NCBI GenBank assembly: GCA_964397545.1
Contig: CAYNIW010000001.1
Coordinates: 24,714-88,713, forward strand
Reading direction: 5' to 3'
Source of the DNA: an uncultured Desulfuromonadaceae bacterium
GTDB lineage: Bacteria; SDB-A
Length of the DNA: 64,000 nucleotides
The position numbers were made by a program, and so were the translations under genes. The notes beneath the pieces were generated by a model, which saw only the letters and a program-made list of their open reading frames with translations, was not told where the DNA came from and did not search any database. Below, in pieces: positions 434 through 61,583 of the stretch. Every line of letters starts with the position of its first letter. Position 1 is the stretch's first letter.

Positions 434-453
434 TTTTTGATATCTTTGAAAAA

Positions 454-480
454 AGCCGCTCTAATGGGCGGCTTTTTCTT
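454..480 (+). terminator. Rho-independent terminator (stem agccgc/gcggct, 8-nt loop, T-tract)
   Basis: Perfect 6-bp GC-rich stem followed by ttttctt immediately after the stop at 433. Confidence 0.6.
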
Positions 481-489
481 TATCCAGAT

Positions 490-1757: not shown

Positions 1758-1762
1758 AAAGC

Positions 1763-3400: not shown

Positions 3401-4083
3401 AGCTGATGATCCCATCTTATAGATTTAAGACCGCAGTTTAAATCTTCAATACTTTTGATTATTTCATGTGAAAGTTTGTCGGCGGGACCACACTGGAACA
3501 GCTTTAAGTATATTTTAAGCCTGACTGTCTTTTCGGAATAATTTTTTTTCACGCTGAAAGTGATTATCTTCATTCTCTGCTTTTTGAGCGCGTCTATAAG
3601 AACCGAGGGTTCAAAAGTCTCGTCGGTTTCGACTATCAGAAATCTGTATGAATCTTTTGTAAATTTTTTTTCGAGTAAATGCATGAACATGAGGGTTATA
3701 ACAGCGATGGAAGTCGAAAAAAAGGCGAGAGAATAATACCCCGATGCAGTTGCCATCCCTATTCCTGCGGTCACCCAAAGAGAGGCCGCAGTTGTAAGGC
3801 CGCGGACATTGAATCCCTCCTTGAGTATTGTTCCCGCTCCGATGAAACCGATGCCCGTCAAAATCTGCGCCGCTATTCTTGAAGGGTCGGCCAATCCTTT
3901 GAAAACCGGATCCAATGCGATTTTTATTGAAATTATCATAAAAAGAGCGGAGCCCAGGCATACAAGGATATGAGTTCTGAATCCCGCCGCTCTCCCGTGA
4001 ATGTCTCTTTCAATACCAATCAGCGCCCCTAATAAAGAGGCAAGCGCGAGTCTTGCAATATATGATGAAAAATATTCAGGCAT
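3397..4083 (-). CDS. mgtC: MgtC/SapB family membrane protein
   Basis: N-terminal LALASLLGALIGIERD motif typical of the MgtC family; multiple TM helices. Confidence 0.75.
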   Translation of the reverse strand: MPEYFSSYIARLALASLLGALIGIERDIHGRAAGFRTHILVCLGSALFMIISIKIALDPVFKGLADPSRIAAQILTGIGFIGAGTILKEGFNVRGLTTAASLWVTAGIGMATASGYYSLAFFSTSIAVITLMFMHLLEKKFTKDSYRFLIVETDETFEPSVLIDALKKQRMKIITFSVKKNYSEKTVRLKIYLKLFQCGPADKLSHEIIKSIEDLNCGLKSIRWDHQL

Positions 4084-4139
4084 TACGAGAATATTATATT
4101 TGTTAAAATCTCAACTGTAAAGGAAACGGAATTTTCATT

Positions 4140-7371: not shown

Positions 7372-10300
7372 TCAGAATCTGAATTCAGCCCAGATGTTTA
7401 AACCTACGTTCCTTATTTTTCTGCCTGTCTGCCTGTCTTCATTTATAGTGTATATGCCGTTCATTCCGCCGGTCACGTTCTGTGAAAAGTTATATGAAGC
7501 CGTGGGAGCGACTGAATAGTTTGATCTGAAAGAAACTATTTCTCCAGAAGTCCTGTACATTTCTTTCGCAGTACTGTAATTGTAAGCAAGAGAAAAAGTC
7601 ATAAGGCTGTTGAAGCGCAATGTCCTCCCGAAAAAAGGAAGACCGCCGGGAGCCGAAAAACTGTAGCTCACTGTCGCGGAATAAGAGTTGTTGAGCTGTC
7701 TGAGATATGTCTTTATTACACCGAGATTATCAATATCTGTCTGGGATCTCGTGGTCGAAAAATTGGTCAGGAAACCTTTCTTCCATCTGACCTGAAAAGA
7801 AACAAGCGGAGACATGTCGAGAGCCAGAGTAGTTCGCGTAGGTTCCTGATTTTCAGGTCCGGATTTCGATCTTGTCGTAGTAAAACCTGTTGAAATTGTC
7901 GAATTTTCAATAGCGTCAAGTTTCATAAATTTTTGAATATTCAGAAGGCTGACCGTTAATCGGGGCCATACTGTTGTTTCCGTGTATGTCATGTTGCCGA
8001 CATTTCCGCCGAAATTCCGGGACCAATTAAAGTGAACACCGGCAGTCAGGTTCGTAAAATTCAATCCGGAATTGCCAGAAAAACTGTATAACCATCCGAA
8101 ATAATCATTCGGAGAGACGTATTTCCCTGTCTCTTCGGGGTCCACATTTTCCAAGAAACCAAGCTGATATCTCCAGTCCGGAAGAGAAGTAAGTCTGTAG
8201 AGCCGGGTTGTTCTCGTCCTTGAAACGGTCAGGTTCAAAGGGGAAAGGTTCCTGCCGAATTTACCGAAATTCATTAAAAACCATTGCGGTGAGCCAGGCG
8301 AGGACAAAGAATCCTTGCTTTCATCCCTTATCTTTCCTATAAATTCGAAGGGCTGAACGAAACTGACTGTTGTGTTGAAGGATAGAGTGTTTGTATTGGA
8401 AACATTGTATATATCGGCAGTGTCGTAAGGCATTCTCAGCTCCGGGCGCGTATCTTCAGTATAGTTCGTTTCGAAAGTCACTGTCGGCCTGATGAAAGAC
8501 AAGGGAAGGGGACTGTATCTTGCCGTCACTCTCTGGGATTTGATTATCTGCCTTCCGAGCATATAGTCGGAGATCTCAAGATCCCGGTTTTGAGTGAGAG
8601 AATATGTGAAACTCATCGGTTTTAATAAGTTGTAGCCCAGCGTCAGAGTGGTATTGAGATTTCTCTGCAGAAGGCTCGCTAGAAGCTGACCTGAGGTGTC
8701 GGGTATGAGATGGGAAGTGACTTTTGTGTAAGAATATGTGGACGTGAAGCTTATAATATTCAAGAATGTTCCTATTTCCTGTCCAGCAAACCTCAAGGGT
8801 TTTACCGTTGGGTTATGGGACCATGTGTATGTGGCTGTTTTGACCCAATTGGAATCCGCTCTGTTATATGTTATGTTGTTGTTGTTGGACCAGGAATAAT
8901 TGAATCTCGAATGGTCTATCATCAGCGACACAAGGGTATTTAAGGATTTGCCGGATTTAGAGAGAGAGAATGAAAAGTGCCTTGTCTCGGATGACGATGA
9001 TTGTTCTCTCGACTCTTCGGGATTGAGCCTTATGTCTGATCCCGGGTAGAATTTTGGATAACTGTTGGTTTTCGAATAAGAAGCGGTCAGAGGGAATGAC
9101 AGCATCCATCTCGAAGGAAAAATTTTTCCCCCTTGGAAAGTAGCGTTTCCGGAATAATTTAAGGCAGTGGAGCCGCTTCCCCGCTCTTCGGTTATCCTCT
9201 GGTAGTCGGCGTCGACCTTGTAACCCGCGAGATTGACGGACAGGACATCTCCAAAAGTCATCCCCACATTTATATTTGTCGCCAAACCTCTTTCTCTGTA
9301 TGGCGAGACGAGCCTCAGATCGTTCATCCATATTTCGCCGTCAAGACCCATGGTCTGATTTTCGTTGACGACGCTCAGTGTCGTCCTGTTTATTTTAGTG
9401 AGAGAAGGTTTGTTCGCTCCGTAGGTGGTTATGTAATAATTCCCCGAATTCCAAGTTCCGGTTGTGTCTCCTTCGACTGTTTTTTTAAGATCAATAAACT
9501 TATCAAACTCAATTGACAATTCCTGCCATCCGTTGGGAATTGGCGTTCTGTATTCGTAATAGGAAAGGGTATCTCCGCCGAATTTTATAGAAAAATATCC
9601 ATCCTGTCCGTCTCCGTGGACATACAGAAGCATCTTTCTGTAATTATTGTAGTTGTCAGCCATGACAGTGGAGTAATAACAGCTTGCGGTTCTTCTGTAG
9701 CCTATGTTTCTCAGGACAAAAGCGAGGGATTGCTCTCTTTTTGTGTTGCCGTAATTGTCCCTTCCGGGGTCGAATGGAGGATAATACCCCGGATCATCGT
9801 AGTTATTTCTTGTCGTCACTTCGAAAAATTCTTCCGGGATGGGAATCGCTGTCGAGTCCGCTGAATAGATGTCGTTTCTCTTCCATCTGTTTCCTGAAAC
9901 GGAAATTCCTCCGAAGACAACAGAGTCTGTCCCGGTGAATCCGTCTATCCATATTCTTGCGTATCTTACTCTTTCCCAGTCAGGAGATCCGACATAGGTT
10001 CCTACGCCGCTGTCGTGAAGAGGTATCTTGAATAACCTCCAGCCGTTGCCTCTGTCTATGTCGAGAAACAAAGTGTCATCCACGGAAAATGAATATTCGA
10101 CGAAGTCTCTGGACATGTTGAGGATTCCGTCTCCGTTGAGGTCTTCCGTGTCGAGAATTTTGTTGTTTTCAGTGCCCTTGAGCTGTCTGTATGTGGACTG
10201 GTTTACGTCGTCAGGATAGTCGTCGTTCCATTCGTCTCCCGGTATGCGGTCCGCGTCTTTTCCCGCCACTCCGTCGAGTCCCACGTCTTCGCCTATATCG

Positions 10301-13038
10301 AGAACGCCGTTTCGGTTTCTGTCTTCAGTGTTCAATAAACCGTTCCAGCCCCCGATAGAGTCGTTGACGCCCGTTCTTCTCGCAACATCTTCTGTAATAT
10401 TGTATCCCAGGTCAATATTTACGTTTCCTCTTTCGCCGTAAACCCAGACTTCAAGATACCTGAACTGAGTAAGGTCAGCTCCAGTTTTTGAAATGCACTG
10501 CTGGACTGAGACATAGGATGAAGGCGATCCGTTTCTCGGTTCGATGACGAGGCTGAGGACCTGAATGTTGTCGTTTCTCTCCTGCTCGGGAAGATTCGGG
10601 TAAAGGTTGCCTTTTGTGAACCAGTCGTTGGGGCTGTACCAATATACCCGGCCGAGGTCCGAAGTATCTTTATAGACGGGAGAACTGCCGATAATATCGT
10701 CGGGGACACTTCCGAAGTGCCAATTCGCTCTGCTGACGCCGAGGTTCAGAGACATTTTGTTTCCATCCATGTCGTCGAGATAGACAAATCCCTTTGTGTT
10801 CGGATTCGGCATAGAGACGGCTACGGCTCCCCTGATTGTCAGAAGAGACGGGGCGGTTGTGCTAATCAAAGGCAGAATGTCCACAGCTTTAGTCATTATT
10901 GAAGGCCTGAAAGTCATGTTAGCGTCAATAGTAGCCATTGTAATATTTCTCGGTTCATTTCCGAGTTGTGGATGTTCTTCTTTTGTGCTGATACTGCGAT
11001 ACATTGCAGTAGCGCCGATGTTAATCGCCGGCGACACGTTGTAATTGAATCTCACACCGAGAAGGGATTTGTCCGCCAAGCTTATAAAAGGCGCGTATTG
11101 AAAATCAATATTTACTACGGCATTTACGTCGTTGACTTTGTCCGTTATGAAAGTGATTATTCCGATGTCGTAGTCAATAGTATAGTCAATATTGCGGACA
11201 AGTCTTTCTCCGTTTACTGTTACGACTTCGGATCCTTCGAGGATGTTCATCGCTCCGAGAGAGAAAACAGACCTGACACCTTTGTAAGAGAGGACGAGTT
11301 TGTATTTTCTACCGACGTTTGTCGAAGTCGTATCGTAGATTATGGAGTCCGGATCGAGAAGGACAGTGCTGGAGAAAGGGAACTGCAGTGTATCTGGAAA
11401 TGATATGAATCCTCTGTCGTAATCTACATATCCGTCGTCTATGTATCCATTGTCGTCATCATCTAGCCCAAGCAGTCTCAGGTAAGTGGTCCCTCCCTGT
11501 GTTTCTTCATCTGTTCCGGAACCCGTATTGTGTTTGTATATTTTAAGCTCAAAACTGCCGGGAACGACTGCCGTCGATCTGAGAGAGTACCTGTTTCTTA
11601 TCTGAAGATCCCAAGTCGGGTAATATGTCCTTTCGACTAAAGGCTTGAGGACTTTTATATCTATCGTCTGGGAAGTGTCATAGACGTCCTGAACAGTTCC
11701 AACCGTGTCCACCCGTATTACCTGCCCCCCCGGAGCATTTCTTCTGTTTATGACGTAGCAAACACCGAGTGCGTTATTTTCATTGAGAGGGATCCTGAGT
11801 TCGAGGACTTTGCTCTGGTAGTTGAATATGAAAAAGTTGTTTGTTCCCGCTTCCTGAGGGTCGAAATAACCCAGGGGCAGAACGGTGTCAGGGTAAGGGG
11901 AGGCAGTATAGAAGCGAAGTCTTCCCTTAATCGCCCCGGTGAGGGCGTTGTTTGTTCCGTTGTTGTCGTCAACCCATACAATCAGTTTTGTTATCGTATC
12001 GTATGGATTGATGTCGCCGATGGAATCGCCCGGCAAACCTAGTCTGAAATACTGTCGTCTTATGTAATCGGTGTCCCAGAGGACTAAAGTATCTACTGTC
12101 GCTCTGCCCACGAAAGTTCTGCGTTCTGATTTGCCCTCTTCTTTTGAAGCAATTGCAATGATATTTATCCCTGCTATCTGCATTTCTGATTTTATTCCGA
12201 AAAGGCCCATCTGTATTGGAGGCATTCCGATAAGTTCCGTCCCAGGAAGAGAGAGCTGAGTGTGTCCCATTTCTATCAGGTGGATGATTTCATCCTGTTC
12301 TCCCATATATTGAAGCCTTATCTTGTTTTTCAGGTCTGCCTGAGCTTCGCTGTTGTGATCGACGAAGACGTTGATTTTCTCCCCTATCGTCCCCTGAAGG
12401 TTTACATTGAGCTGTTGCTTCATCTCGAGCTCGGGAAGAAAGTCATTTTGGCTGTATTCTGTCTGAATCGCATTCAGGTCAGTTGACTGACTCCCTCCGA
12501 ACTGAATTCGCTGTGACCCGCTGATTTTCAGATTTCCGCCTTGGCCTATAAAGCCGGCAATAGCCCTGGGCATTCTGATAGGCAGTTCAATGTCGGGTAT
12601 CAGACCCTGATTTGAAAGGGTCTGCTGCTGTTGAAGGTAGGAAACAGTGTAGCTTGCGAGTTTATCCTTCAAAGTAGTAGTGTATGCGTAAGATTTATAG
12701 TCTTCTACCGACTTGATGTCTTGTGTCCACAGGACGAGAGAGTCGAAATATGCTTCTTCTATTAGAATACCCCTGTCGGGAAGAATAGTCTGTCTGAATT
12801 TAAGTTTTGAAAAGTTTCTGAACAGATAATCTCTCATCATATTTTCTATAGGGGAATGAAAACCGGTTTCCTGAGCGACTAAAACCGAATTGAGCCCCGC
12901 GGTGAACAGGACAGCTCGGAGTATAAAGATCAGAAAAATAAATCTATGAGCTTTTTTCAATATTTTTTTTTTTGCAGTCAATAGCTGAAAATAGCTTATT
13001 AAATACGGTTTTATAATTTTCATTGAAACCAAAACCAA
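7372..13038 (-). CDS. sprA: Giant outer-membrane beta-barrel protein, SprA-like (candidate T9SS translocon)
   Basis: 1888 aa; signal-peptide-like N-terminus; Y/N/T/S/G-rich strand-like sequence throughout; Asp-rich calcium-binding-like stretches; terminal aromatic residue (...WAEFRF); a T9SS C-terminal-domain cargo is present elsewhere in the window. Start could also be the in-frame Met at 13023. Confidence 0.5.
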   Translation of the reverse strand: MVLVSMKIIKPYLISYFQLLTAKKKILKKAHRFIFLIFILRAVLFTAGLNSVLVAQETGFHSPIENMMRDYLFRNFSKLKFRQTILPDRGILIEEAYFDSLVLWTQDIKSVEDYKSYAYTTTLKDKLASYTVSYLQQQQTLSNQGLIPDIELPIRMPRAIAGFIGQGGNLKISGSQRIQFGGSQSTDLNAIQTEYSQNDFLPELEMKQQLNVNLQGTIGEKINVFVDHNSEAQADLKNKIRLQYMGEQDEIIHLIEMGHTQLSLPGTELIGMPPIQMGLFGIKSEMQIAGINIIAIASKEEGKSERRTFVGRATVDTLVLWDTDYIRRQYFRLGLPGDSIGDINPYDTITKLIVWVDDNNGTNNALTGAIKGRLRFYTASPYPDTVLPLGYFDPQEAGTNNFFIFNYQSKVLELRIPLNENNALGVCYVINRRNAPGGQVIRVDTVGTVQDVYDTSQTIDIKVLKPLVERTYYPTWDLQIRNRYSLRSTAVVPGSFELKIYKHNTGSGTDEETQGGTTYLRLLGLDDDDNGYIDDGYVDYDRGFISFPDTLQFPFSSTVLLDPDSIIYDTTSTNVGRKYKLVLSYKGVRSVFSLGAMNILEGSEVVTVNGERLVRNIDYTIDYDIGIITFITDKVNDVNAVVNIDFQYAPFISLADKSLLGVRFNYNVSPAINIGATAMYRSISTKEEHPQLGNEPRNITMATIDANMTFRPSIMTKAVDILPLISTTAPSLLTIRGAVAVSMPNPNTKGFVYLDDMDGNKMSLNLGVSRANWHFGSVPDDIIGSSPVYKDTSDLGRVYWYSPNDWFTKGNLYPNLPEQERNDNIQVLSLVIEPRNGSPSSYVSVQQCISKTGADLTQFRYLEVWVYGERGNVNIDLGYNITEDVARRTGVNDSIGGWNGLLNTEDRNRNGVLDIGEDVGLDGVAGKDADRIPGDEWNDDYPDDVNQSTYRQLKGTENNKILDTEDLNGDGILNMSRDFVEYSFSVDDTLFLDIDRGNGWRLFKIPLHDSGVGTYVGSPDWERVRYARIWIDGFTGTDSVVFGGISVSGNRWKRNDIYSADSTAIPIPEEFFEVTTRNNYDDPGYYPPFDPGRDNYGNTKREQSLAFVLRNIGYRRTASCYYSTVMADNYNNYRKMLLYVHGDGQDGYFSIKFGGDTLSYYEYRTPIPNGWQELSIEFDKFIDLKKTVEGDTTGTWNSGNYYITTYGANKPSLTKINRTTLSVVNENQTMGLDGEIWMNDLRLVSPYRERGLATNINVGMTFGDVLSVNLAGYKVDADYQRITEERGSGSTALNYSGNATFQGGKIFPSRWMLSFPLTASYSKTNSYPKFYPGSDIRLNPEESREQSSSSETRHFSFSLSKSGKSLNTLVSLMIDHSRFNYSWSNNNNITYNRADSNWVKTATYTWSHNPTVKPLRFAGQEIGTFLNIISFTSTYSYTKVTSHLIPDTSGQLLASLLQRNLNTTLTLGYNLLKPMSFTYSLTQNRDLEISDYMLGRQIIKSQRVTARYSPLPLSFIRPTVTFETNYTEDTRPELRMPYDTADIYNVSNTNTLSFNTTVSFVQPFEFIGKIRDESKDSLSSPGSPQWFLMNFGKFGRNLSPLNLTVSRTRTTRLYRLTSLPDWRYQLGFLENVDPEETGKYVSPNDYFGWLYSFSGNSGLNFTNLTAGVHFNWSRNFGGNVGNMTYTETTVWPRLTVSLLNIQKFMKLDAIENSTISTGFTTTRSKSGPENQEPTRTTLALDMSPLVSFQVRWKKGFLTNFSTTRSQTDIDNLGVIKTYLRQLNNSYSATVSYSFSAPGGLPFFGRTLRFNSLMTFSLAYNYSTAKEMYRTSGEIVSFRSNYSVAPTASYNFSQNVTGGMNGIYTINEDRQTGRKIRNVGLNIWAEFRF

Positions 13039-44859: not shown

Positions 44860-46878
44860 TTAGTTGACTCTTGTAAATTTGCCAGTGAAAATGTTCGAGC
44901 CGGCAGTCACTTTGTAGAAATAGACGCCGTTTGAGACATTTTCGGAGTTCCACGAAAGAACTGAAGCCTGATTGACGGTTCCGGTGAAAGGAACAGCCAC
45001 AAGCCTTCCCGTCGCGTCGAAAACCTCGAAACTGACCGACGAAGAAGAAGGAACTGTAACAGCGAGTCTCAAGATACTTCCGACCTGCGCGAGAGACCTT
45101 ACCGAGAAAGTTTCAGGAGCGGCTATCGGATTTTCTTCGACTGCGTTGGGTATCCTGATTGTGACATCGTCAATATAGAATCCGGGATAGGCCACAGAGC
45201 CGTCGGATCCGAAATCCCACTGCAGCCATATTGTCTGTCCGCCGTAGGAAGAAAGATCCATCATATACTGGTTCCATGCGTTCATTCCGGCTACGTGTCC
45301 CGTCCATATCGCCTGTCCGTTGAGCGGATTTGAAGTGTTCGCCGTTCCAGTGTATGCTGGTGTTACGCCGTTGAAAATCGAGAAAGTGGTTCCGTCGGTG
45401 GAAATCTTCATGTTTCCGCCGTCGTAGCTGGCTTCGGTGTCCCACCACATCCAGAAGAAGCATTCCGCGACTGACATGTCGGCAGGAAGCGTTATTCCTG
45501 GGGTCGTAAGCTGGGCGTTTGCACTGTTCGGATAGTTTCCCGCAAGAACGGTAGCCCATACGTTGGATCCGCTATGTGCCGCTCCGGGTCCTGAAGTCGG
45601 TGCTCCCCACTGCCAGACATTCGCCGTTCCCGTTACCGTCATGTCTCCGCTGTCGGCTTCAAAGTCCTCGACGTAGAGATCGACGAACAGGAAAGTGTGG
45701 AAGTCAACCATTACGGTGTCGTTGCCGGGAGCTAGACCGGGTTCTGTGATGAAGGTGGCAGTGAAGTTGTGCCTATACCACCAGGATGTCCAGGTCGGAA
45801 ATACGCAGTGGAAAGAATCTCCGACTGCGAGGTTCGAAACCTGAATGGATTCAGAGTAAATTACGCCCGAAACCGATTCTTCTATTGTCAGATATGTCCA
45901 GAAAGACTGAGGTCCTGAACTCGTAGCGGAATTGAAGACCCAGCATTCAGGAGTCATGGGAGTCGCCGGAGGATAGAAGCCCTCGACGGGAACATCAACA
46001 TGGAGAATTCCGACGTCGTCCATAGAAAGAGCTATGGCGTAAGCAAAGTCCTGGTCTCCCTGGCAGAATCCGATAAGACAGGGGCCGAAACCGAGGAAGT
46101 TGGGGTAGTAATCTCCCCCGCCTGCCATTTTGTTTGTAAACCCGGCGGCAAAAGCCGGAACGGCGCAGTAGAGGGTTTCTCTCGTCCAAGTTCCGTTGTG
46201 GTAGTTGAGGCCGAACCATGTGCATTCCCATCCGCCTGGGTTTGTCACCTGTCCGTGATACCACACTTTGTCGTTTTCCGGAACCAGAGCTGATCCGTAA
46301 ACGGCATAATCACCTGTTCCGCTCCAGGGTGAACCGCTCTTCTGAAATCTTCCCATGGAAGTGCCGAAGTTTCCTGTCCAGAAAGTGTCTCCTGGGACCC
46401 AAGCCATTGCCCTGTTGGGGTTGGACTGTCCCGTATATGTGTTGACCTGAGTCATCGAAAAAGGCGATAGACCCACGACGTAACCTCTGACTCCTGTCCC
46501 TGACTGGTCTCCGGCGTAGATCGTGTCGCCGGCGTCTCTGTCCATGTCTCTGTGCCCCCATGTTCCGGCGGCCTGTCCTGTCTGATTGACAGAGGCGACA
46601 TATGTTCCTGATACGTAGTTTATCAGAAGAAAAACAGGCTGTGCTGTGTTGGCGTCTGTGATTATCATGAGAGAGTCGTCTATGACCTCGACTCCGAGGA
46701 GTCTGTTGCTCGCGACTCCGCCGAGTCCTTCAACGACGAGAGACCACACCAACGGCAGTTCTATGGCGTCGTTGTTATCCGGTAGAGAAGGGATGAAAGG
46801 CGCTCTGTCGGTGTTGTCGTTAGCGAGCATCGGCGCGGCAATCATGGCGAAAACCGCAAGTATTACCATTAACCTCAT
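44860..46878 (-). CDS. Secreted protein with type IX secretion C-terminal sorting domain (T9SS cargo)
   Basis: N-terminal signal peptide; C-terminal ~80 aa carries CTD hallmarks FEVFDATGRLV ... GVYFYKV ... GKFTRVN; 672 aa. Confidence 0.75.
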   Translation of the reverse strand: MRLMVILAVFAMIAAPMLANDNTDRAPFIPSLPDNNDAIELPLVWSLVVEGLGGVASNRLLGVEVIDDSLMIITDANTAQPVFLLINYVSGTYVASVNQTGQAAGTWGHRDMDRDAGDTIYAGDQSGTGVRGYVVGLSPFSMTQVNTYTGQSNPNRAMAWVPGDTFWTGNFGTSMGRFQKSGSPWSGTGDYAVYGSALVPENDKVWYHGQVTNPGGWECTWFGLNYHNGTWTRETLYCAVPAFAAGFTNKMAGGGDYYPNFLGFGPCLIGFCQGDQDFAYAIALSMDDVGILHVDVPVEGFYPPATPMTPECWVFNSATSSGPQSFWTYLTIEESVSGVIYSESIQVSNLAVGDSFHCVFPTWTSWWYRHNFTATFITEPGLAPGNDTVMVDFHTFLFVDLYVEDFEADSGDMTVTGTANVWQWGAPTSGPGAAHSGSNVWATVLAGNYPNSANAQLTTPGITLPADMSVAECFFWMWWDTEASYDGGNMKISTDGTTFSIFNGVTPAYTGTANTSNPLNGQAIWTGHVAGMNAWNQYMMDLSSYGGQTIWLQWDFGSDGSVAYPGFYIDDVTIRIPNAVEENPIAAPETFSVRSLAQVGSILRLAVTVPSSSSVSFEVFDATGRLVAVPFTGTVNQASVLSWNSENVSNGVYFYKVTAGSNIFTGKFTRVN

Positions 46879-52809: not shown

Positions 52810-53739
52810 TCAGAAAAGAGACAGATAAATTTTAGCTCTCTCTTCGGCAGGACCTTTCATGCCTGTGTAAAAATTCGTGAAAGTTATGGTTCCGCCGTTT
52901 GTCCCCCCCTCTTTCCACCTGAAGGCTACGGGAGATTCGGAAAGCCATTGACTGCCATCAACCGGAACGGTCGCGCGTATGAGGACGGTAGTCCCTGTCT
53001 GGACCATGCTAATCGGCGGGAAGGGCATCGCGAATACGACCCCAATTGTTCCTCCTGTGTATTCGGAGAGTTCCGAGTCTAATTCAACAGAAGTGGCGGT
53101 TCCCGCCACGCCTTCTCTCGTGTCTCTCTCGAACCTTCCCGGGAACATGTTCTGAAGCCAGAAATAAGCGTTGCCGGAGACGTAGAGGTAGTTGCCCTGC
53201 TGTTCTGCCCAGTTTTTAAGTTCGGCAGGATAAGAGGTCGCGGCATAACCGCTGTCGGAGACCAAAAAGACGTATTTTCTCTGGTTCAGATGGGAGGCGT
53301 TGAGGTCGGGGAGTCTCACTGAGTCATAGGCAATGCCGGCGGTTTTCAGGACTCCCGGCAGTTCGTCCCAAAAATATTTTCCGTAGACGACGAGAAAGTA
53401 TCCGCTCGTCGGGACTGTTGAATTGAGCGTCCTCGAAGACGTGTCGTTTTTGACGACGGTCACAGTCGCAGAAGCCGTGAAGACGCCCTTTGTCGCCGTC
53501 AGAACCTGATCGCCTGCGGGGACATTCTGAAGGAAGAAATAGCCGTCGGAGCCGGTCGTCGCGGTTACATTACCCGCCGTCACAGTGGCGCCGGGAACGG
53601 GCATTCCACCCGAGGGAAGGCGGAAATAACCGTCTATACAGCCGGCGTTGGTCGGCTGGGTAGGAGAGGAATCTTTTGTGCATGATGAGAAGGCAAAAAG
53701 AGCCAAAACGGCGATTGCCAAGATAGAAATATTTTTCAT
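52810..53739 (-). CDS. Secreted protein with carboxypeptidase-regulatory-like beta-sandwich domain, probable lipoprotein
   Basis: Start at ATG 53739 with aggagga RBS gives MKNISILAIAVLALFAFSSC lipoprotein signal; GATVTAGNVTATTGSDGYFFLQNVPAG region. Confidence 0.5.
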   Translation of the reverse strand: MKNISILAIAVLALFAFSSCTKDSSPTQPTNAGCIDGYFRLPSGGMPVPGATVTAGNVTATTGSDGYFFLQNVPAGDQVLTATKGVFTASATVTVVKNDTSSRTLNSTVPTSGYFLVVYGKYFWDELPGVLKTAGIAYDSVRLPDLNASHLNQRKYVFLVSDSGYAATSYPAELKNWAEQQGNYLYVSGNAYFWLQNMFPGRFERDTREGVAGTATSVELDSELSEYTGGTIGVVFAMPFPPISMVQTGTTVLIRATVPVDGSQWLSESPVAFRWKEGGTNGGTITFTNFYTGMKGPAEERAKIYLSLF

Positions 53740-53804
53740 CTGTCCTCCTTTTTGTTTAAGTCTAAAAAATTCTAACACAGACGGCATGTAAACTGAATGT
53801 CTCA

Positions 53805-54929
53805 TTATTTGACGGCGGTAAAAAGTTCGCTGACAGAGACGTTGTAGTGCAGTCTGTTGACGGTTGAAGCTATTCTCTTTGAAAGGCTGTGGAACTTGAC
53901 GAAATCGAGCTCAAGAATTTCGGGTATCTGGGGTATTGTGTCGGTGACGTGCATTTCCCTGAGCCCGTATTTTTCGTGAGCCTCGAGGAGCCCGGCGAGA
54001 TGTTTCTTTTTCATCTTAAGATGTGATATTGCGACATATATATCCTCTATGCCGTGGTTTGTATAAAGGTTTTTAGTCACGTTCAGAAAAGAACTGCCGG
54101 TCACTGTTTCGTCGTCTGTGATGAGGGCTGTTTTTTTTTCTTCGAGGTCGCCGATTACACCGAGCATGTCTGATTTGTCTTTGCTTTGGCGGAACTTGTT
54201 GACGATAGCGTGCGATATGCCCATGGCATCGGCAAAATGTATGGTGAACTTGGCTCCTCCGGAATCTGTTGAAACCGCTACCGCATCCTTTCGGTCTTTG
54301 AAAGAGGAAAAAATTTCAAGAAAAAGATCGAGGCCGCTGAGGGCGACAAGAGTCATGTCTGGTTCGTAGAGGCCGAAAAGAGAAAGAGCGTGAGGATGAT
54401 ATGTCAGGTGGATGTTTGCTCCCGCGACTTTGAGCTGGTCGGCGAAAAGCTTGGCGAGAGTGGCTTCCCTTTTCATAAAAGTCGGTTTGTCCTGCCTTGA
54501 ATAAGGAGAATAAGGCGTGACGACCGTAATTGTCTGAGCCCTGTGAGCTTTAAGTGTCCTTACTGCCTGCAGTAGCTGTTGGAGGTTTTCGTTTACAGTT
54601 TTGCCAGAGATGTTTTCGTGAATACACTGAAAAATAAAAGCGTTGGAACCCGCGACGTGCCTTGTGAGGCGCGGGCAGGTCTCCGAATCTTCGAAAATCA
54701 TCGTCAGAGGTTTTTCAAAGGTTCCGATTAAAGGTATCTCTTTCAGGTCGCTTCCGTTTATCCTCAGCATTTCCTCGTAATGTTCCTTCACGGATAAAGC
54801 GAGAGGGACTCCTGAATTGCAGGCGACAAACAAAAGCCAGCCGTTAGGCCCCAGCAGAAGGCGGCTCTTTGTCTTTTCGAATCTTTCCGGAGCAATGAAG
54901 TTTTGACTGAACTTGTCCATGTTTATCAT
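53805..54929 (-). CDS. Ribose-phosphate pyrophosphokinase (PRPP synthetase) family protein, divergent
   Basis: Parallels Prs in PYSPYSRQDK, HPHA, AVSTDSGG, TDDETVTGSS and TDTIPQ, but has an N-terminal extension and an altered PRPP-binding loop (VTGSS in place of DTGGT). Confidence 0.55.
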   Translation of the reverse strand: MINMDKFSQNFIAPERFEKTKSRLLLGPNGWLLFVACNSGVPLALSVKEHYEEMLRINGSDLKEIPLIGTFEKPLTMIFEDSETCPRLTRHVAGSNAFIFQCIHENISGKTVNENLQQLLQAVRTLKAHRAQTITVVTPYSPYSRQDKPTFMKREATLAKLFADQLKVAGANIHLTYHPHALSLFGLYEPDMTLVALSGLDLFLEIFSSFKDRKDAVAVSTDSGGAKFTIHFADAMGISHAIVNKFRQSKDKSDMLGVIGDLEEKKTALITDDETVTGSSFLNVTKNLYTNHGIEDIYVAISHLKMKKKHLAGLLEAHEKYGLREMHVTDTIPQIPEILELDFVKFHSLSKRIASTVNRLHYNVSVSELFTAVK

Positions 54930-54948
54930 TTATACCTCCATATTAAAT

Positions 54949-56310
54949 TTATGTCCCGGCGGGTTTCGTGTATGACCTGTAAAAATTCCTTCTGTATCCG
55001 TGAGAAGAGACTATTTTTCTGTAGGGAATGAAAAGATATGCGTTTGCCGCCGCCCTTCCGAGGACGACAGCCGCGGCGGCGGCATAAATCCCTACCATGT
55101 CGAAAAATTTTATCGCCGACAGCATAGTCAGAACTATTACTGCAACTTCCGTAGCTGTGGCGACCGTTATCGGATAAGTAAGCCTTGAATTGACGAGAAC
55201 GGACCTCTGCCAGGCGAGGAGAGAAGTCAAAGCAGGCATGAAAGAGAGTATGGCAAAAGGTATAGCCGTGAGAAAGAGCAGTTCACCGGAGAGGAACGAC
55301 ACGTGCTTGAACCACAGAAATGACAGAGGAGTTATTGATAAAACAGCTGGGATGATGCTGGTTATGAGTCCGAGTTTGAACACGAAATTTCTCAGAGGTA
55401 TGAAGTTTTCGTATTTTGCCCCAAGAAGGGCGAGACCCGCTTCCTGAAACGAAAAACCGAAACTTCTGAAGATAAAAACTAAAGCGTTAATGACGGGAAG
55501 AACAGCAAGGGATTCTATTGACATGCGTGATTTAGCCAGGAAAAAGGTCAGCAGAGGGTTTATTCCGAGAATAAGATACGACGTCATAGCGAGAGGATAG
55601 TAAAATGAGATTATCTCGCGCAAACCGAGCGTTTTGCCTTCCAGAGGCTCCGAAGTGACTTTTTTTACTGCTTTAACGCTCATAAGCCTTGTCGCGGCGG
55701 CTTCGAGCATCACTCCAGCTGAAAGGGAAGCGGCTCCGACAGAAGCTCCGGAGATGTCGGTAAAGAGAAAGAGAAAAATTCCAGTGACGGACATGACAAA
55801 AAGCCTGACGAAAGTTCCTGCGGCGACTTTTTTTGTCTGTCCCTGTCTAATGAGGATACCCTGATAAAATCGTCTGTATCCTATGGCTCCTGCCCACGGA
55901 AGCATCAAAATGGAAGAGGAATGTGCGAGAGAAGCGATTTGGGAGTTCAGTTTGAGGACATCTTTCGCGAGAAATTTAAATATGAATGGAACATTGATAA
56001 AGACGTGAAGAATTGTGACTGCGGCTATAATTGTAAATATGAAATTTCTAAGAGATATGTATTTTTTTCTGTCGTTGACGAGCGCCACCGAAGCAGACAA
56101 TATCATAACGACAGGCGCTTCAACGAGCAGAGCTATTGAAAAAGCGACTCCGTATGCGGCGAGATTGTATTTAGCGTCGTGAATTCTCCCGATTATAGCC
56201 GTTATGAAAGGAGCTTCCGACGCCATCATGAGCCATGTAAAAGAAAGGGGAAGCCAGAAGGCGAAAATCTGTCTTGAGGTCAATCCCTTTTCTTTTTCCG
56301 AATTCGGCAT
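54949..56310 (-). CDS. MOP-superfamily (MATE-like) exporter or flippase
   Basis: 453 aa, about 12 TM helices, MATE-like N-terminal region (ITAIIGRIHDAKYNLAAYGVAFSI). Confidence 0.5.
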   Translation of the reverse strand: MPNSEKEKGLTSRQIFAFWLPLSFTWLMMASEAPFITAIIGRIHDAKYNLAAYGVAFSIALLVEAPVVMILSASVALVNDRKKYISLRNFIFTIIAAVTILHVFINVPFIFKFLAKDVLKLNSQIASLAHSSSILMLPWAGAIGYRRFYQGILIRQGQTKKVAAGTFVRLFVMSVTGIFLFLFTDISGASVGAASLSAGVMLEAAATRLMSVKAVKKVTSEPLEGKTLGLREIISFYYPLAMTSYLILGINPLLTFFLAKSRMSIESLAVLPVINALVFIFRSFGFSFQEAGLALLGAKYENFIPLRNFVFKLGLITSIIPAVLSITPLSFLWFKHVSFLSGELLFLTAIPFAILSFMPALTSLLAWQRSVLVNSRLTYPITVATATEVAVIVLTMLSAIKFFDMVGIYAAAAAVVLGRAAANAYLFIPYRKIVSSHGYRRNFYRSYTKPAGT

Positions 56311-56642: not shown

Positions 56643-58157
56643 TTAGATTTTGTCAATAATAGGATTCATGCTTCCGTCGGAAGGGCAGGAGGAGAGAACT
56701 TCTATCTGCGGCGAAACTTCGTGATCCTCGGGAATAAAAGGCGTCTTTTCTCTGATAAACTCCTGTATGAGCGACGTTCCTCTGCCGAGTTTTTCTCTTT
56801 TCTGACAGAGATCTACTGCCCTTGACGCCGAAAGAAACTCGATGGCAATAATTTTTGATACGAGTTCTGCTGATTCGAGGCATTTAAGTGAAGCGTTTGA
56901 TCCGAAACTGACATGATCCTCTCTCCCTGCAGAGGTGGGTATTGAATCCGAAGAGCAGGGATTTGCCTTGCTTTTGACAAGATTCAGAAGGGATGCGGCG
57001 GTCAGATGGGCTATCATATATCCGGATTCGACACCGGGTTCAGACGCGAGAAATGGAGGCAGTCCGCTTCTTTTGTCGTCGAGTATTAAGTCTATTCTTC
57101 TCTCCGATATTGCCGCTATATTGGAAAGCGCGAGAGAAAGAGAATCCATGGCGAAAGCTATGGGCTGGCCGTGAAAATTACCCCCGGACAGTATTTCGCC
57201 TTCTTCGGGAAAAACTATCGGGTTGTCCGTCACAGAATTTATCTCTACGCAGAGTGTTTTTTCGACGGACGCGAGAGCGTCCTTTAGGACTCCATGGACC
57301 TGCGGCATGCACCTTAAGGAATACGGATCCTGAACTCTGCGGTGGGATTCCGAACCGACGTTGGAACTGCCGCCGATGAACTTCCGGATGTTCTCCGCCG
57401 ATTGCATCTGGCCCGGATACGCTCTGAGCGCATGGATTTTTTGGTCGAAAGCTTCAGGCCTTCCGTCTAAGGCTTCGAGGGTCAAGGCTCCGGACATATC
57501 GCAGGAAAGGGATAAATTTTTCGCCTTGAAGAAAGAGAGGATACCGAGCGCAGTCATGAACTGAGTCCCGTTTAAGAGGGCGAGACCTTCTTTCGCCTTG
57601 AGGACGAGAGGCTTTAGCCCTGTTTTTGAAAAAAAATTTTGAGCCCGTATTTTTTCTCCTCTGAAAAATATCTCTCCCCTTCCGATAAGGCAGAGGGCGA
57701 GATGCGCGAGAGGGGCGAGGTCTCCCGACGCGCCTACCGATCCGAGAGAGGGAACGGCGGGGTAGGCTCTGAAGTTTAGGAAATCTTTGAGAAGCAGGAG
57801 AACATCGGTGCGGACGCCTGAATGGCCTTTTGCCATGACGCAGGCACGCAGAAACATCATCGCCCGGACAGCCTCCTCTGATAAAAGGGGTCCTGTCCCG
57901 CAGGAGTGGGAGAGGACGAGGTTCAGCTGGAGTTTGTCTATCATTGAAGCGGATATCTTTTTCTCGGCCAAAGAACCGAATCCAGTGTTTATGCCGTAAA
58001 CGGATGTCTTTCCTGAAGCGGCTTTCTCGACCGCGGACCTCGCTTTTTTTACTTTTTCAAGCGCGCTTTGGGTTATATCGACTTCAGCCATTCCCATCGA
58101 GACTTTAATCACTTCTTCAAGGGTTGTGTTTTTTTCAGATATAAAGACTTTTTTCAC
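56643..58157 (-). CDS. hutH: Histidine ammonia-lyase
   Basis: MIO-forming Ala-Ser-Gly triad within GSVGASGDLAPLAHLA; 504 aa. Confidence 0.85.
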   Translation of the reverse strand: MKKVFISEKNTTLEEVIKVSMGMAEVDITQSALEKVKKARSAVEKAASGKTSVYGINTGFGSLAEKKISASMIDKLQLNLVLSHSCGTGPLLSEEAVRAMMFLRACVMAKGHSGVRTDVLLLLKDFLNFRAYPAVPSLGSVGASGDLAPLAHLALCLIGRGEIFFRGEKIRAQNFFSKTGLKPLVLKAKEGLALLNGTQFMTALGILSFFKAKNLSLSCDMSGALTLEALDGRPEAFDQKIHALRAYPGQMQSAENIRKFIGGSSNVGSESHRRVQDPYSLRCMPQVHGVLKDALASVEKTLCVEINSVTDNPIVFPEEGEILSGGNFHGQPIAFAMDSLSLALSNIAAISERRIDLILDDKRSGLPPFLASEPGVESGYMIAHLTAASLLNLVKSKANPCSSDSIPTSAGREDHVSFGSNASLKCLESAELVSKIIAIEFLSASRAVDLCQKREKLGRGTSLIQEFIREKTPFIPEDHEVSPQIEVLSSCPSDGSMNPIIDKI

Positions 58158-58494
58158 AAAATCCTCCGTTTAAATGATAAAAAATATTTTATCAAATTAT
58201 CAGACCAAAAGAATACAAAAAACAGAAAAATCCACTGCGAAAGACTATCCGGTGTCATATATCTATACGAATTTAATAAGAAAGGACCAGATATTTTATG
58301 GTTACATAAAAAGCGTAACACGAAGAAAAATAAATTAAAGAAGAGGATTTAACCGCGAATTAACCTAAAAAGAAAATTAATGAATATACAAAATACTTAT
58401 CCAGAAAAGATCTCTTTTCCAAATCTACGTCTCTATAAAAAAAAGCACAGCCGCGCCGCTGACAGCAAACGCATGTAATAAATCGTTTTCTTTA

Positions 58495-59331
58495 TTATAT
58501 CTTTATTTGAAATACAAGAAAATATCCGTTGAAATGATGTTTCAATTTGAATGAAGTAAATATTTTTATTTCTTTTCTTGTAAAAGTTTTGTCCATTTTG
58601 TTTAAAGCAGTTTCCTTGTCAGTTTCAGAATGATATGGTAAAATGAAATTCAAAGTATTATCTGAAATTTCAGGGTATTTTTTTTCATTGAGTATGTTTC
58701 CTTCGGCTTTTACTTCAGTCATAATACGAAATCGAAGCTTCACCGATGCTTTATTAACATTTCTAACTTTGCTAAAATTTTCCTGTTCTGAAAATATTGA
58801 TGTTAACAATTCTTTGATTTTTGGCGTAATTTTTATATGTCTTTCAGTTAATCGTTCATTTAATACCTGTGAAAACGACGAACTGATAAGTTCTCTGGTT
58901 TGTATGGTTTCAAAGAAACTGCCATGAATCAATGCTATTTTTTGAGATGCCTTTTTTTTATTTTTACCTCTAACTAGATAATATACTTCTCTAATAGGTA
59001 ACGAATAAATATTATCTCCTGCGTCAACCATTTGTTGTCTAATGATACTATTTTCACCTTTTATAACTTTTTCAATTTCTTTTTTCCCTGTTGGAATAGT
59101 AGAATTAAATGAAGAAACAGTATAAGTATCGCTATCCTTAAGTTCTATTAACTCTCCACCAGTAAAAAGAGAATTATTAGATGTAAGTCTAATAGCTAAA
59201 TCAGGGAATTGACCTTTGTTTTGACATGATAACAATGAAGTATCAAAAGGAAAATCCTCTAATTTTACAATATTAATAAATTGTTTCTTTTGTAAAACCA
59301 AAGACTTGAAAAAATGATAAATAGAATACAT
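58495..59331 (-). CDS. Candidate Type II restriction endonuclease (PD-(D/E)xK-like), cognate of the adjacent methyltransferase
   Basis: Start overlaps the methyltransferase stop (TAATG); possible PD ... ELK catalytic motif (FPDLA ... GGELIELK); AT-rich codon usage; no other recognisable domain. Confidence 0.4.
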   Translation of the reverse strand: MYSIYHFFKSLVLQKKQFINIVKLEDFPFDTSLLSCQNKGQFPDLAIRLTSNNSLFTGGELIELKDSDTYTVSSFNSTIPTGKKEIEKVIKGENSIIRQQMVDAGDNIYSLPIREVYYLVRGKNKKKASQKIALIHGSFFETIQTRELISSSFSQVLNERLTERHIKITPKIKELLTSIFSEQENFSKVRNVNKASVKLRFRIMTEVKAEGNILNEKKYPEISDNTLNFILPYHSETDKETALNKMDKTFTRKEIKIFTSFKLKHHFNGYFLVFQIKI

Positions 59332-60209
59332 TAGCCGCCAAATAATAATGGTAATTGAGTAGTATTTTTGTTTTGAACTTCAAAATTATCACCCCAAATA
59401 TCATTCAAATTTTCAGTACATATATAATCTTTATAGTACTTTTGAATAAGATCGGATTCTCTTAGATTTTGCAAACGTTCTTTAATACAATTTGCATTTT
59501 CAGGATCAATTTCAATTCCTATTGAATTACGATGAAGTTGATGTGCTACGACTAATGTTGTTCCTGTTCCAGCAAAAGGATCAAAAACAAAATCACCAAC
59601 TTTTGATGACGTTAAAATTATTCGCAATAGTAATGCTATGGGTGCTTGTTGTTTATGCAATCTTTCTCCGCTTTTATTTCTAATTGCTTCATTCCCCGCA
59701 AAATATCCTGAAGTTAATTCCCTGATATCGTCCCAAACATCTGTTACATAAACTCCATTTTCTCGTTGTATTTTGAAACTTGCAGGCAATTCAGGTTCTA
59801 TTCGCAAACGATGAAAGGTATTTACTTTTTCACCTTTGGTTGCATAAACAATTATTTGGAAATGTTTTCCATATTTATTTGCAACTGGTACTGCTGATGT
59901 CTTTTTTTTCCAGACAATCAAATTTTGAAATATCCACCCAGTTTCTCGTAATATTTTTAATACAAATTCCGTATTTTTTTCACGTTGCATAAAATAAATA
60001 GCTCCGCCTATGTTTGTTATTTCATTAACATGTTGGCAAACTTTTTTCATCATTTTCCAGTATTCCTGCTCGCTCATATTATCATTATGAAATGCATAGT
60101 CCTTTTGCTGATTAAAAGGAGGATCTAAAAAAGTCAAATCAACATTTTGAGAAATCATTTTTTTCTCAAATGCGATTAAGCAATCATTATTTATTATTGT
60201 GAAATTCAT
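59331..60209 (-). CDS. Site-specific DNA methyltransferase, beta-class amino-methyltransferase (N6-adenine or N4-cytosine)
   Basis: Motif IV DPPF near the N-terminus and motif I FDPFAGTGTT near the C-terminus; that order defines the beta class. Confidence 0.75.
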   Translation of the reverse strand: MNFTIINNDCLIAFEKKMISQNVDLTFLDPPFNQQKDYAFHNDNMSEQEYWKMMKKVCQHVNEITNIGGAIYFMQREKNTEFVLKILRETGWIFQNLIVWKKKTSAVPVANKYGKHFQIIVYATKGEKVNTFHRLRIEPELPASFKIQRENGVYVTDVWDDIRELTSGYFAGNEAIRNKSGERLHKQQAPIALLLRIILTSSKVGDFVFDPFAGTGTTLVVAHQLHRNSIGIEIDPENANCIKERLQNLRESDLIQKYYKDYICTENLNDIWGDNFEVQNKNTTQLPLLFGG

Positions 60210-60439
60210 AATTGTTTATTTTAAGAACAGGTGACGATTTATTTTTTTTGAATTGTTGAAATAATAAACAGTAAAGAAATGATTAGGCATTTCACCTTCC
60301 TTGTAGTTTATAAAGAGAATAATAGAACCAAGACAAACACAAGTCAAATAAGGATTTTACTGTTTAATCCTCGCTAACCATAACTTGTTTTTTTAATTTC
60401 GGAATATGTTATTACTAGATTTGACTCAGGATTTTAACA

Positions 60440-60483
60440 TCTCATCGAGGAGAATTGACAAAATCTGTCAATAGTCAAGACCA
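60440..60483. repeat. 44-bp imperfect direct repeat, copy A (flanks the brnTA cassette)
   Basis: atctcatcgaggagaattgacaaaatctgtcaatagtcaagacc; about 84 percent identical to copy B at 61162-61205 in the same orientation. Confidence 0.6.
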
Positions 60484-60492
60484 GAAAAAATA

Positions 60493-60750
60493 TTACTGTC
60501 TGACTTGATAATGCAAAGTATATTTATCGAGAACCGTTTTTATCATTGTCTGATATGGAACCCCTGCTTTCTTTGCTTTCCTTTTAAAAAAATCTATGCT
60601 TTTTTTACTTAATAGAATTGTAATCTTAACGGTTTCTTCTTTTTTAACCAAATTTTCCGGCGCCGGAAGAAAATCTTCTATTACTTCAGAAGCAAGAACC
60701 GCTTCAGATACATATTTTGGGGCTTTTTTATATGTTATTTTTTTCTTCAT
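60493..60750 (-). CDS. brnA: BrnA-family antitoxin (DUF4415-like)
   Basis: 85 aa; C-terminal ...SIDFFKRKAKKAGVPYQTMIKTVLDKY fits the BrnA signature; immediately downstream of, and overlapping, a BrnT-like reading frame. Confidence 0.65.
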   Translation of the reverse strand: MKKKITYKKAPKYVSEAVLASEVIEDFLPAPENLVKKEETVKITILLSKKSIDFFKRKAKKAGVPYQTMIKTVLDKYTLHYQVRQ

Positions 60751-61006
60751 GCTTTTTTCTCCCTTCTCTCCAATATCCCGCTCCGAATATCCTGATTTTT
60801 TGATCCCTTATTGTAAATCTGACAGTTAAAATATCATTATCAATTTTTCCAAAACAGAAATATCTTTTTTCTCTTTTCGTTGAATGTTTTATATCAAGTG
60901 TTATTACTCTTTTTATATCAAAAAAAGCATTTTGAGCTTAAGAAAATGAAATTCCATGTTTTTGAATGTTTTCAATGTTTTTTACATCATCCCATTCAAA
61001 CTGCAT
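60728..61006 (-). pseudogene. brnT: BrnT-family toxin (DUF497-like) interrupted by an in-frame TAA at codon 23
   Basis: Manual translation of the minus strand gives MQFEWDDVKNIENIQKHGISFS*AQNAFFDIKRVITLDIKHSTKREKRYFCFGKIDNDILTVRFTIRDQKIRIFGAGYWREGRKKHEEKNNI, which fits the BrnT pattern across the stop (plus-strand tta at 60938-60940). Confidence 0.55.
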
Positions 61007-61161
61007 AATGACTAATATACATAATAAATACCATATATCAATACATATTTAATTTAAAAAACAATAAAAAATGTAATTTTAAATTGCGTCCAGCAATTTC
61101 AAAGGCTGTGTAGCTTTACGAGTTTAATATGAGAAGATATTCAACAAAACGGTTTATCATT

Positions 61162-61205
61162 ATCTCGTCGAGGGGAATCGTCAGAATCTGTCAAATGTCA
61201 AGACC
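61162..61205. repeat. 44-bp imperfect direct repeat, copy B (flanks the brnTA cassette)
   Basis: atctcgtcgaggggaatcgtcagaatctgtcaaatgtcaagacc; pairs with copy A at 60440-60483. Confidence 0.6.
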
Positions 61206-61275
61206 TGGCACCTAATCATAAATGTGATTTGTTAATTTAAAATTTTAAGATAAGAAAATTTAAACCACAAAGGTT

Positions 61276-61547
61276 TACTTATTTACCAAAGTAAAAAATC
61301 TTATTTACCTAAGTAAATAAGAGAGCTACAGGAAGGAGTAAATCATAAATGATTTTAATCTTATTTGCCTTCGGCAATTAAGAGAGCTACAAGAAGTAAA
61401 ACCAAAACTCACAAATTTCTTTTATTCACTTCGTGAAGGAAAAATGTATTCATTTTTCCCTTCGTGAAGGGATAAAGCAACGATTTATCCCGCTTCGTGG
61501 TGGAAATTGTATTTGTATTTATTATTAAGAAAAGATATCCACCGCGA
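61276..61547. repeat. Repeat- and hairpin-rich non-coding region: about 61-bp tandem duplication plus three consecutive perfect stem-loops
   Basis: Tandem units aatcttatttacctaagtaaataagagagctacagg... and aatcttatttgccttcggcaattaagagagctacaag...; hairpins at about 61438-61459, 61469-61491 and 61529-61547; recurring cttcgtgaagg motif. Confidence 0.5.
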
Positions 61548-61583
61548 AGGGCGGTGGTAGAAATATTCTTTGTCTTTTTTTCT

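Follow-up and report, generated by a model that had tools for sequence, protein, structure and literature searches.

An uncultured Desulfuromonadaceae bacterium (assembly GCA_964397545.1) carries a gene for a protein resembling ribose-phosphate diphosphokinase (Prs), the synthase of phosphoribosyl pyrophosphate (PRPP), between a gene for a membrane transporter and a gene for a secreted lipoprotein. We analysed a stretch of 64,000 nucleotides (nt) of contig CAYNIW010000001.1 (positions 24,714 to 88,713 of the forward strand), here called the window, and all coordinates without a locus name are positions in it. The question raised by this locus is whether the Prs homologue is a specialised enzyme working with its two neighbours, as an original prediction made from the DNA letters had suggested, or an ordinary PRPP synthase. 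We consider it likely that the 374-residue protein is a functional PRPP synthase belonging to a long-form branch of the family, which would serve general PRPP supply and would be co-transcribed with two unrelated envelope genes. This conclusion is drawn from sequence comparisons and structural models. The gene and the parts of it that carry the argument are as follows.

53805 to 54929, minus strand: long-form ribose-phosphate diphosphokinase (PRPP synthase) homologue, 374 residues, assigned by TIGR01251, the AlphaFold2 (AF2) fold and the residue map

54837 to 54929, minus strand: N-terminal extension, residues 1–31, seen in the alignments and the feature table, with a predicted local distance difference test score (pLDDT) of about 58–65

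54486 to 54497, minus strand: RQDK motif, R145–K148, corresponding to E. coli R96–R99 (ATP phosphates)

54387 to 54398, minus strand: HPHA motif, in which H180 corresponds to E. coli H131 and H178 replaces D129

54189 to 54197, minus strand: catalytic flexible loop, K245-F-R247, corresponding to E. coli K194 and R196

54090 to 54116, minus strand: ribose 5-phosphate (R5P) loop DDETVTGSS, D272–S280, invariant in 24 family members

Using TIGR01251, the curated hidden Markov model of ribose-phosphate diphosphokinase, we found that the Prs homologue passes with 143.1 bits against a cutoff of 113. The class I model PRK01259 is failed, with 137 bits against a cutoff of 297. In a sequence search of the PDB, the closest solved structures were those of B. 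subtilis Prs and human PRPS1, both at about 1e-27. The AF2 model of the protein, built on 24 family sequences, has a pLDDT of 82.8, covers the whole Prs fold and contains two tandem phosphoribosyltransferase (PRT)-type alpha/beta domains. When this model was compared with known structures by Foldseek, the top 50 matches were all Prs, with target template modelling scores (TM-scores) of 0.80–0.86. These comparisons directly support membership in the Prs family and the Prs fold. The window protein shares with class I Prs (E. coli, B. subtilis, human PRPS1; EC 2.7.6.1) the two-domain fold and the C-terminal SVSxLF motif, and with human PRPS1 the combination of RQDK and the flag motif F-x-D-x-E-T. 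It differs from class I in being only about 27–31% identical, in scoring far below the class I equivalog cutoffs, and in having two additional segments, the N-terminal extension of about 31 residues and an insert of about 16 residues before the flag region, both defined relative to E. coli Prs.

These additional segments are shared with a small group of relatives. An exhaustive HMMER search against 1.84 billion cluster representatives yielded no more than 56 matches at E <= 1e-30, which form a graded series of proteins of about 350–400 residues, alignable from the N-terminal extension on, down to about 30% identity. Below this series come ordinary Prs of about 315 residues at about 90–110 bits. 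The extension carries a clade-conserved motif, F-I-x-P-E, which is recognisable in relatives as distant as 31–44% identity. A neighbour-joining tree places the window protein within this long-form clade, which amounts to about 60 clusters at 50% identity. Ten of its more distant members likewise pass only the general TIGR01251 model (137–222 bits). Judged from these alignments, the Prs homologue is a divergent protein and a member of a small, uncharacterised long-form clade. The original prediction had called it divergent, and this holds, both because it falls below every equivalog cutoff and because it belongs to a separate clade. We also considered the PRK06827-type long Prs of 383 residues (model NF005299) and rejected this assignment: the window protein scores 73 bits against a cutoff of 327, and its long-form relatives score 59–106 bits.

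The close family in a collection of 5.8 billion proteins is 58–95% identical. Where its members are named, they are called ribose-phosphate pyrophosphokinase and come from metagenome-assembled genomes (MAGs) labelled Chitinispirillaceae, Chitinivibrionales, 'Fibrobacter sp.' and 'candidate division WOR-3'. A scan of GTDB with one genome per species gave 41 loci, each genome having a single long-form copy, which in one MAG is broken across two contigs. A few contigs with the long-form Prs are labelled Bacteroidales, Spirochaetales, Nanoarchaeia or Woesearchaeota. On the Nanoarchaeia- and Woesearchaeota-labelled (DPANN) contigs, the gene lies at positions 2112–3222 of locus L045 (53% identity) and 4192–5307 of locus L047 (43%), and its archaeal origin is a matter of the label only. 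The long-form branch is spread over the window's own lineage, Chitinispirillia/Fibrobacterota-type MAGs and a few other groups. A literature search on the Chitinispirillum genome paper gave nothing relevant on Prs.

We aligned the product of E. coli prs from the annotated MG1655 record to the window protein and transferred to it the ligand contacts known from E. coli Prs, including the roles of R99 (ATP phosphates) and H131 (Mg/ATP phosphate) (PMC9232217); the contact residues of the R5P loop were taken from PMC9232217 and PMC5395218. E. coli numbering serves as the reference, and conservation within the family was judged over 24 members. It turned out that the window protein retains F35, D37, E39, R96, Q97, D98, H131, D170, K194, R196, D220, D221 and T225. 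At the adenine site, in the flag region, F35 and D37 correspond to F79 and D81. The position of R99 is occupied by K148, and a lysine stands there in human PRPS1 too. The Mg-ribose ligand D170 is D222. Among the R5P contacts, D220, D221 and T225 are D272, D273 and T277, and T228 is conservatively replaced by S280. K245 and R247, whose equivalents K194 and R196 we take to be catalytic in Prs, are invariant in all aligned sequences. The mapped substrate and catalytic residues are invariant or nearly so in the 24 family members, and the residues for ATP, Mg and R5P and those of the catalytic loop are those of class I except at D224. The Prs motifs named by the original prediction (RQDK, HPHA and a DD-rich loop) and its N-terminal extension are borne out by the translation and the alignment.

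The retention of these residues bears on the idea that the protein is a catalytically dead regulatory subunit, like the human PRPP synthetase-associated proteins (PAPs). A divergent sequence with extra segments would fit such a role, and PAP1 and PAP2 are among the weaker PDB matches, but these matches span the N-terminal half only, and each of H180, K245, R247, D222, D272 and D273 is retained and invariant. An inactive PAP-like subunit is hardly credible, and we rejected it because the catalytic residues are conserved.

The only departures in the active site are the replacement of D224 by V276 and that of D129 by H178, both fixed in the family. The first of them gives VTGSS in place of the DTGGT of E. 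coli Prs, a substitution that the original prediction had read correctly and from which, together with the N-terminal extension, it had concluded that the protein is probably not the housekeeping Prs. We compiled a feature table of the extension, the insert and the key positions for 127 Prs cluster representatives. In this set, the position of D224 is taken by D, S, A, T, G, L or V, and many proteins of ordinary length have S, A, T, G or L there. Because the position varies in ordinary-length Prs, the VTGSS loop lies within the natural range of the family and gives no sign of lost or changed function; in these alignments, an aspartate at this position does not strictly define the Prs family. 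The argument from VTGSS is therefore weak, since T225, D220, D221 and D170 are kept, T228 is changed only to serine and D224 is variable elsewhere. With this set of residues, the long-form Prs would convert ATP and ribose 5-phosphate to PRPP and AMP in a Mg-dependent reaction.

The residues outside the active site give a different picture from class I. The contacts of allosteric site 2, R102, E133 and S149, are F151, L182 and L200 in the window protein. The position of R49 is A93; nearly every representative of canonical length has arginine there, whereas the long-form clade does not. Since the residues that contact the allosteric nucleotide in class I are lost, we infer that the long-form enzyme may be regulated differently. 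Class II (plant) and class III (archaeal) PRPP synthases also lack allosteric inhibition by ADP of the class I type, and the window protein resembles them in being without the class I allosteric-site residues. It has no specific affinity to them: the match to the Sulfolobus Prs (4twb) is marginal (E 3e-5), whereas bacterial and human class I enzymes match at about 1e-27, and we know of no N-terminal extension of this type in class II or III. It is conceivable, though short of probable, that the long-form Prs represents an unrecognised regulatory class without class I allosteric sites and is the sole Prs of Chitinispirillia and their relatives.

The two neighbours were next to be weighed. They and the spacers that separate them from the Prs gene are listed here.

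54949 to 56310, minus strand: membrane protein gene, 453 residues, MOP-superfamily fold, from the list of open reading frames (ORFs)

54930 to 54948, minus strand: intergenic spacer of 19 nt with a GGAGG ribosome-binding site (RBS) 7 nt 5' of the Prs ATG, read from the sequence

53740 to 53804, minus strand: intergenic spacer of 65 nt with an AAGGAGG RBS 6 nt 5' of the lipoprotein ATG and without a terminator-like hairpin

52810 to 53739, minus strand: predicted lipoprotein gene, 309 residues, identified by its signal peptide and PF13620

The genes thus stand head to tail on the minus strand in the order transporter, Prs, lipoprotein, and the three ORFs described by the original prediction are present there. 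It had given the gaps as 21 and 66 base pairs (bp); the tight spacing stands, the exact sizes do not, and the difference is trivial. The lipoprotein ORF was listed by the program as 52810–53805; its translation almost certainly begins with the ATG at 53739, because the AAGGAGG lies just upstream of this codon and the product then begins MKNISILAIAVLALFAFSSC, a signal peptide ending in the lipobox Cys. Both spacers carry a strong RBS. A promoter and terminator scan gave counts that did not exceed those expected from shuffled sequence, and no terminator-like hairpin lies between the three genes beyond chance. Rfam, run over the entire window, revealed no riboswitch (PRPP, purine) or other RNA family, and no tRNA genes were found in the window. 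As a tight co-directional unit with strong RBS, the three genes probably form an operon, as had been predicted, and the Prs would share its transcript with an ANKH/MATE-like transporter of the MOP fold and a clade-restricted lipoprotein.

The surroundings of the cluster are an ordinary chromosome. One flank holds purA (convergent), an RNase HII-family gene, uvrD and an SSF symporter gene, and the other a divergent glutaredoxin gene and a histidine/aromatic ammonia-lyase gene; nadE, secDF, mnmG, dxr, rseP and cysS lie farther out in the window. In two relatives (L005, positions 13–3368, and L010, positions 1039–4393), two divergent aromatic/histidine ammonia-lyase paralogues flank the glutaredoxin gene, and the window has one (56643–58157).

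The membrane protein gave no Pfam match even at E<=10, neither to MatE (PF01554) nor to ANKH (PF07260). Among 30 homologues, seven have weak ANKH matches (best 3e-8) and three have weak MatE matches. The AF2 model (pLDDT 88) is a 12-helix, two-bundle MOP fold. In a Foldseek search of the PDB, MATE proteins came top at a TM-score of about 0.7, and MurJ and WzxE followed at 0.6–0.7, all with a probability of 1.0. The protein is only 10–16% identical to solved MATE proteins. From the model, it is probably a distant ANKH/MatE-like transporter, so the MATE-like or MOP exporter of the original prediction holds at the level of the fold and fails at the level of Pfam. Because the match to MurJ and WzxE is nearly as good as that to MATE, neither the substrate class nor the direction of transport can be assigned from the fold. 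The search for homologues with about 50% identity gave more than 5300, in Ignavibacteria, Calditrichia, Aminicenantes and Bacteroidota; the majority are annotated as hypothetical proteins, and a few carry the label ANKH or MATE. This family is very large, well conserved and barely covered by Pfam; the sampled loci are L049–L051 (5001 to about 6320 in each). A literature search on bacterial ANKH homologues gave nothing usable.

The predicted signal peptide of the lipoprotein is MKNISILAIAVLALFAFSS-C, and the lipobox cysteine C20 is invariant in all eight homologues. Residues 44–103 match the CarboxypepD_reg beta-sandwich (PF13620) with 34.2 bits against a cutoff of 32.3. The description as a secreted carboxypeptidase-regulatory-like protein is upheld by this match, and the start at 53739 is the one that description had used. 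A lipobox signal peptide followed by the PF13620 beta-sandwich is the layout of CarboxypepD_reg surface lipoproteins of the FCB group. The window protein differs from these in its C-terminal domain of about 200 residues, for which we found no convincing Pfam or PDB sequence match, and in the size of its whole family: only 9 relatives were found among 5.8 billion proteins. A metagenome scan for further lipoprotein loci returned one JGI contig only, which was already known.

We then asked how far the three genes keep together. ORFs were called and clustered in 48 fetched loci, and the flanks of the relatives were read to +/-10 kb. In about 20 Chitinispirillia-type species, the gene order is BamA-DksA / ThiC-PrmA-Prs-(an unknown protein of 715 residues)-NadC-CoaX. 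This neighbourhood is a housekeeping one and includes a PRPP-consuming enzyme. The conserved protein between Prs and NadC, of 715–740 residues and without a Pfam match, is encoded at L001 7468–9615, L002 7236–9464, L020 9444–11591 and in five other loci. In the window's own clade, where Prs is about 67–95% identical to that of the window, the tree resolves three branches. The first has the order transporter-Prs-lipoprotein and contains the window, L004, L008 and a WOR-3-labelled MAG, the last inferred from locus tags; L004 shows a 4-nt overlap between the transporter gene and the Prs gene. The second, with L005, L009 and L010, has transporter-(transketolase)-Prs without the lipoprotein; the transketolase gene of L005 and of L010 extends 8 nt into the start of the Prs gene. 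The third, with L053 and L055, has Prs and lipoprotein without the transporter, and the upstream gene in L053 encodes an EAL/HDOD protein. The transporter is upstream of Prs in 5 of 46 loci. About 40 other Prs loci lack the full triad, as do all three transporter loci sampled in other genomes. No Prs was found near the transporter homologues in these three genomes (Aminicenantes, Bacteroidota and one other), where the neighbours are unrelated.

The three-branch distribution indicates that the triad was probably ancestral to the family-level clade and then decayed on either side; in the sequences compared, parsimony favours the three-gene order as the ancestral state. The original prediction had proposed checking whether this order is conserved, and it proved to be confined to the window's family-level clade and partly decayed even there. 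Free variation of the neighbours among relatives, which had been named as a sign against the proposal, was largely what we saw: the transporter and the flanks vary, and the lipoprotein, where it occurs, follows Prs. Thus, transporter-Prs-lipoprotein appears to be an inherited arrangement in one family-level clade and not a conserved functional module. In all six contexts read, the lipoprotein gene immediately follows that of the long-form Prs, even with different outer flanks; its coordinates are 52810–53739 in the window, 8196–9125 in L004, 2951–3880 in L008, 4241–5188 in L053 and 1811–2758 in L055.

This distribution has to be set against the proposal that the Prs homologue is a dedicated paralogue of this clade only, which feeds PRPP, a phosphoribosyl compound or a glycoconjugate to the MOP transporter for export, with the lipoprotein as an extracytoplasmic partner. 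The tight same-strand spacing, the strong RBS, the lack of a terminator and the transporter/Prs overlap in L004 would all suit such a pathway, as would the ancestral triad and the six contexts in which the lipoprotein adjoins Prs. The MOP fold is common to the lipid-linked glycan flippases MurJ and WzxE, the transporter homologues have weak ANKH matches, and mammalian ANKH is linked to nucleotide and pyrophosphate export. There is also a precedent in mycobacteria, where PRPP feeds an envelope glycoconjugate (PMC3380012). The cluster itself, however, contains no phosphoribosyl- or glycosyl-transferase. Prs orthologues at 60–66% identity have entirely different housekeeping neighbours, one sublineage is without the lipoprotein at the locus and another without the transporter, and in two relatives a transketolase gene stands between transporter and Prs. 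In the three other genomes, no Prs gene lies near the transporter homologue. We therefore regard the proposal as rather improbable, and the pathway for making and exporting a phosphoribosyl-derived metabolite that the original prediction had suggested is not supported, as no transferase is present, the triad is limited to one clade and decayed, and the transporter family is unlinked to Prs elsewhere. The form of this idea in which Prs, the ANKH-like transporter and the lipoprotein make up an envelope pathway of this clade, so that PRPP or a derived phosphoribosyl or pyrophosphate compound is passed out and used extracytoplasmically, is in our opinion very unlikely.

The same neighbourhoods argue against the statement that the protein is probably not the housekeeping Prs, because its orthologues occur in housekeeping contexts, both with the overlapping transketolase gene and in the order ThiC-PrmA-Prs-X-NadC. 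Most likely, the long-form Prs supplies the general PRPP pool of the cell.

Several points weigh against a housekeeping PRPP synthase. None of the Prs equivalog models was passed, with scores of 76–113 bits against cutoffs of 296–536. The pair of replacements D224V and D129H is a fixed, non-random change near the ribose and Mg sites in the sequences compared, and Asp234 of M. smegmatis Prs, the equivalent of D224, is listed as a modelled R5P contact (PMC5395218). A canonical prs may coexist elsewhere in the genome, since our search for Prs covered the window and the relatives' loci; neither the window nor the 56 fetched loci (724 kb), which are a small sample of each genome, contained a second Prs homologue. 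In the literature search, we found no long-form or N-terminally extended Prs class described and no member of the clade characterised biochemically. Finally, adjacency in six of six contexts despite differing flanks makes the Prs-lipoprotein pair more persistent than chance synteny predicts. Vertical transmission of a co-transcribed pair within a narrow clade can account for this linkage, and a functional tie between lipoprotein and Prs is possible.

Some of these points would suit an active paralogue with altered chemistry or regulation (another sugar-phosphate acceptor, nucleotide donor or metal) that coexists with a canonical Prs. The invariant D224V and D129H, the conserved extension and insert, the replacement of R49, R102, E133 and S149 by A, F, L and L and the scores below all equivalog cutoffs could be taken as its marks. 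Phage Prs-like enzymes use ADP-ribose, so the Prs fold can switch its acceptor. Against this, all other R5P and ATP contacts are kept, the position of D224 is naturally variable, the transketolase and NadC contexts suit ordinary R5P-to-PRPP chemistry, and no Nampt-like partner is nearby. Such a paralogue is thus unlikely, if less so than the export pathway.

We also considered a phage NAD-reconstitution Prs-like enzyme. A tblastn search of 50,697 phage records gave matches to the core only (residues 79–370) at less than 30% identity. No Nampt-like gene neighbours the Prs, and this candidate was rejected. As the phage matches are limited to the canonical core at such low identity, they indicate no special relation to phage Prs.

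Some other features of the window were observed. A low-GC insertion of about 3.4 kb lies at 58180–61570, with a GC of about 0.30 as compared with about 0.46 in the flanks. It contains an N6/N4 DNA methyltransferase gene (59331–60209), a small ORF (60493–60750) and, abutting the methyltransferase gene, an ORF of 278 residues without a Pfam match (58495–59331), which probably encodes the cognate restriction enzyme. The syntenic locus L004 lacks the insertion, and about 60 bp separate the flanking genes there. Type IX secretion markers, a 1888-residue SprA-like protein and an InhA-like protein with Por_Secre_tail, are encoded at 7372–13038 and 44860–46878 and point to an organism of the FCB group. 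Public records assign the nearest relatives to 'candidate division WOR-3' or even to Desulfuromonas, so these labels may be unreliable.

If the preferred explanation, a functional long-form PRPP synthase for general supply, is true, the Prs gene of this locus belongs to ordinary central metabolism, and a changed residue of the PRPP loop alone is insufficient to call a Prs homologue non-canonical. Two small leads are the invariable place of the lipoprotein after prs and the very large unannotated family of ANKH-like transporters. In the long-form clade, the catalytic machinery is kept and the residues of class I nucleotide allostery are gone. Thus, this clade could show another control of PRPP supply.

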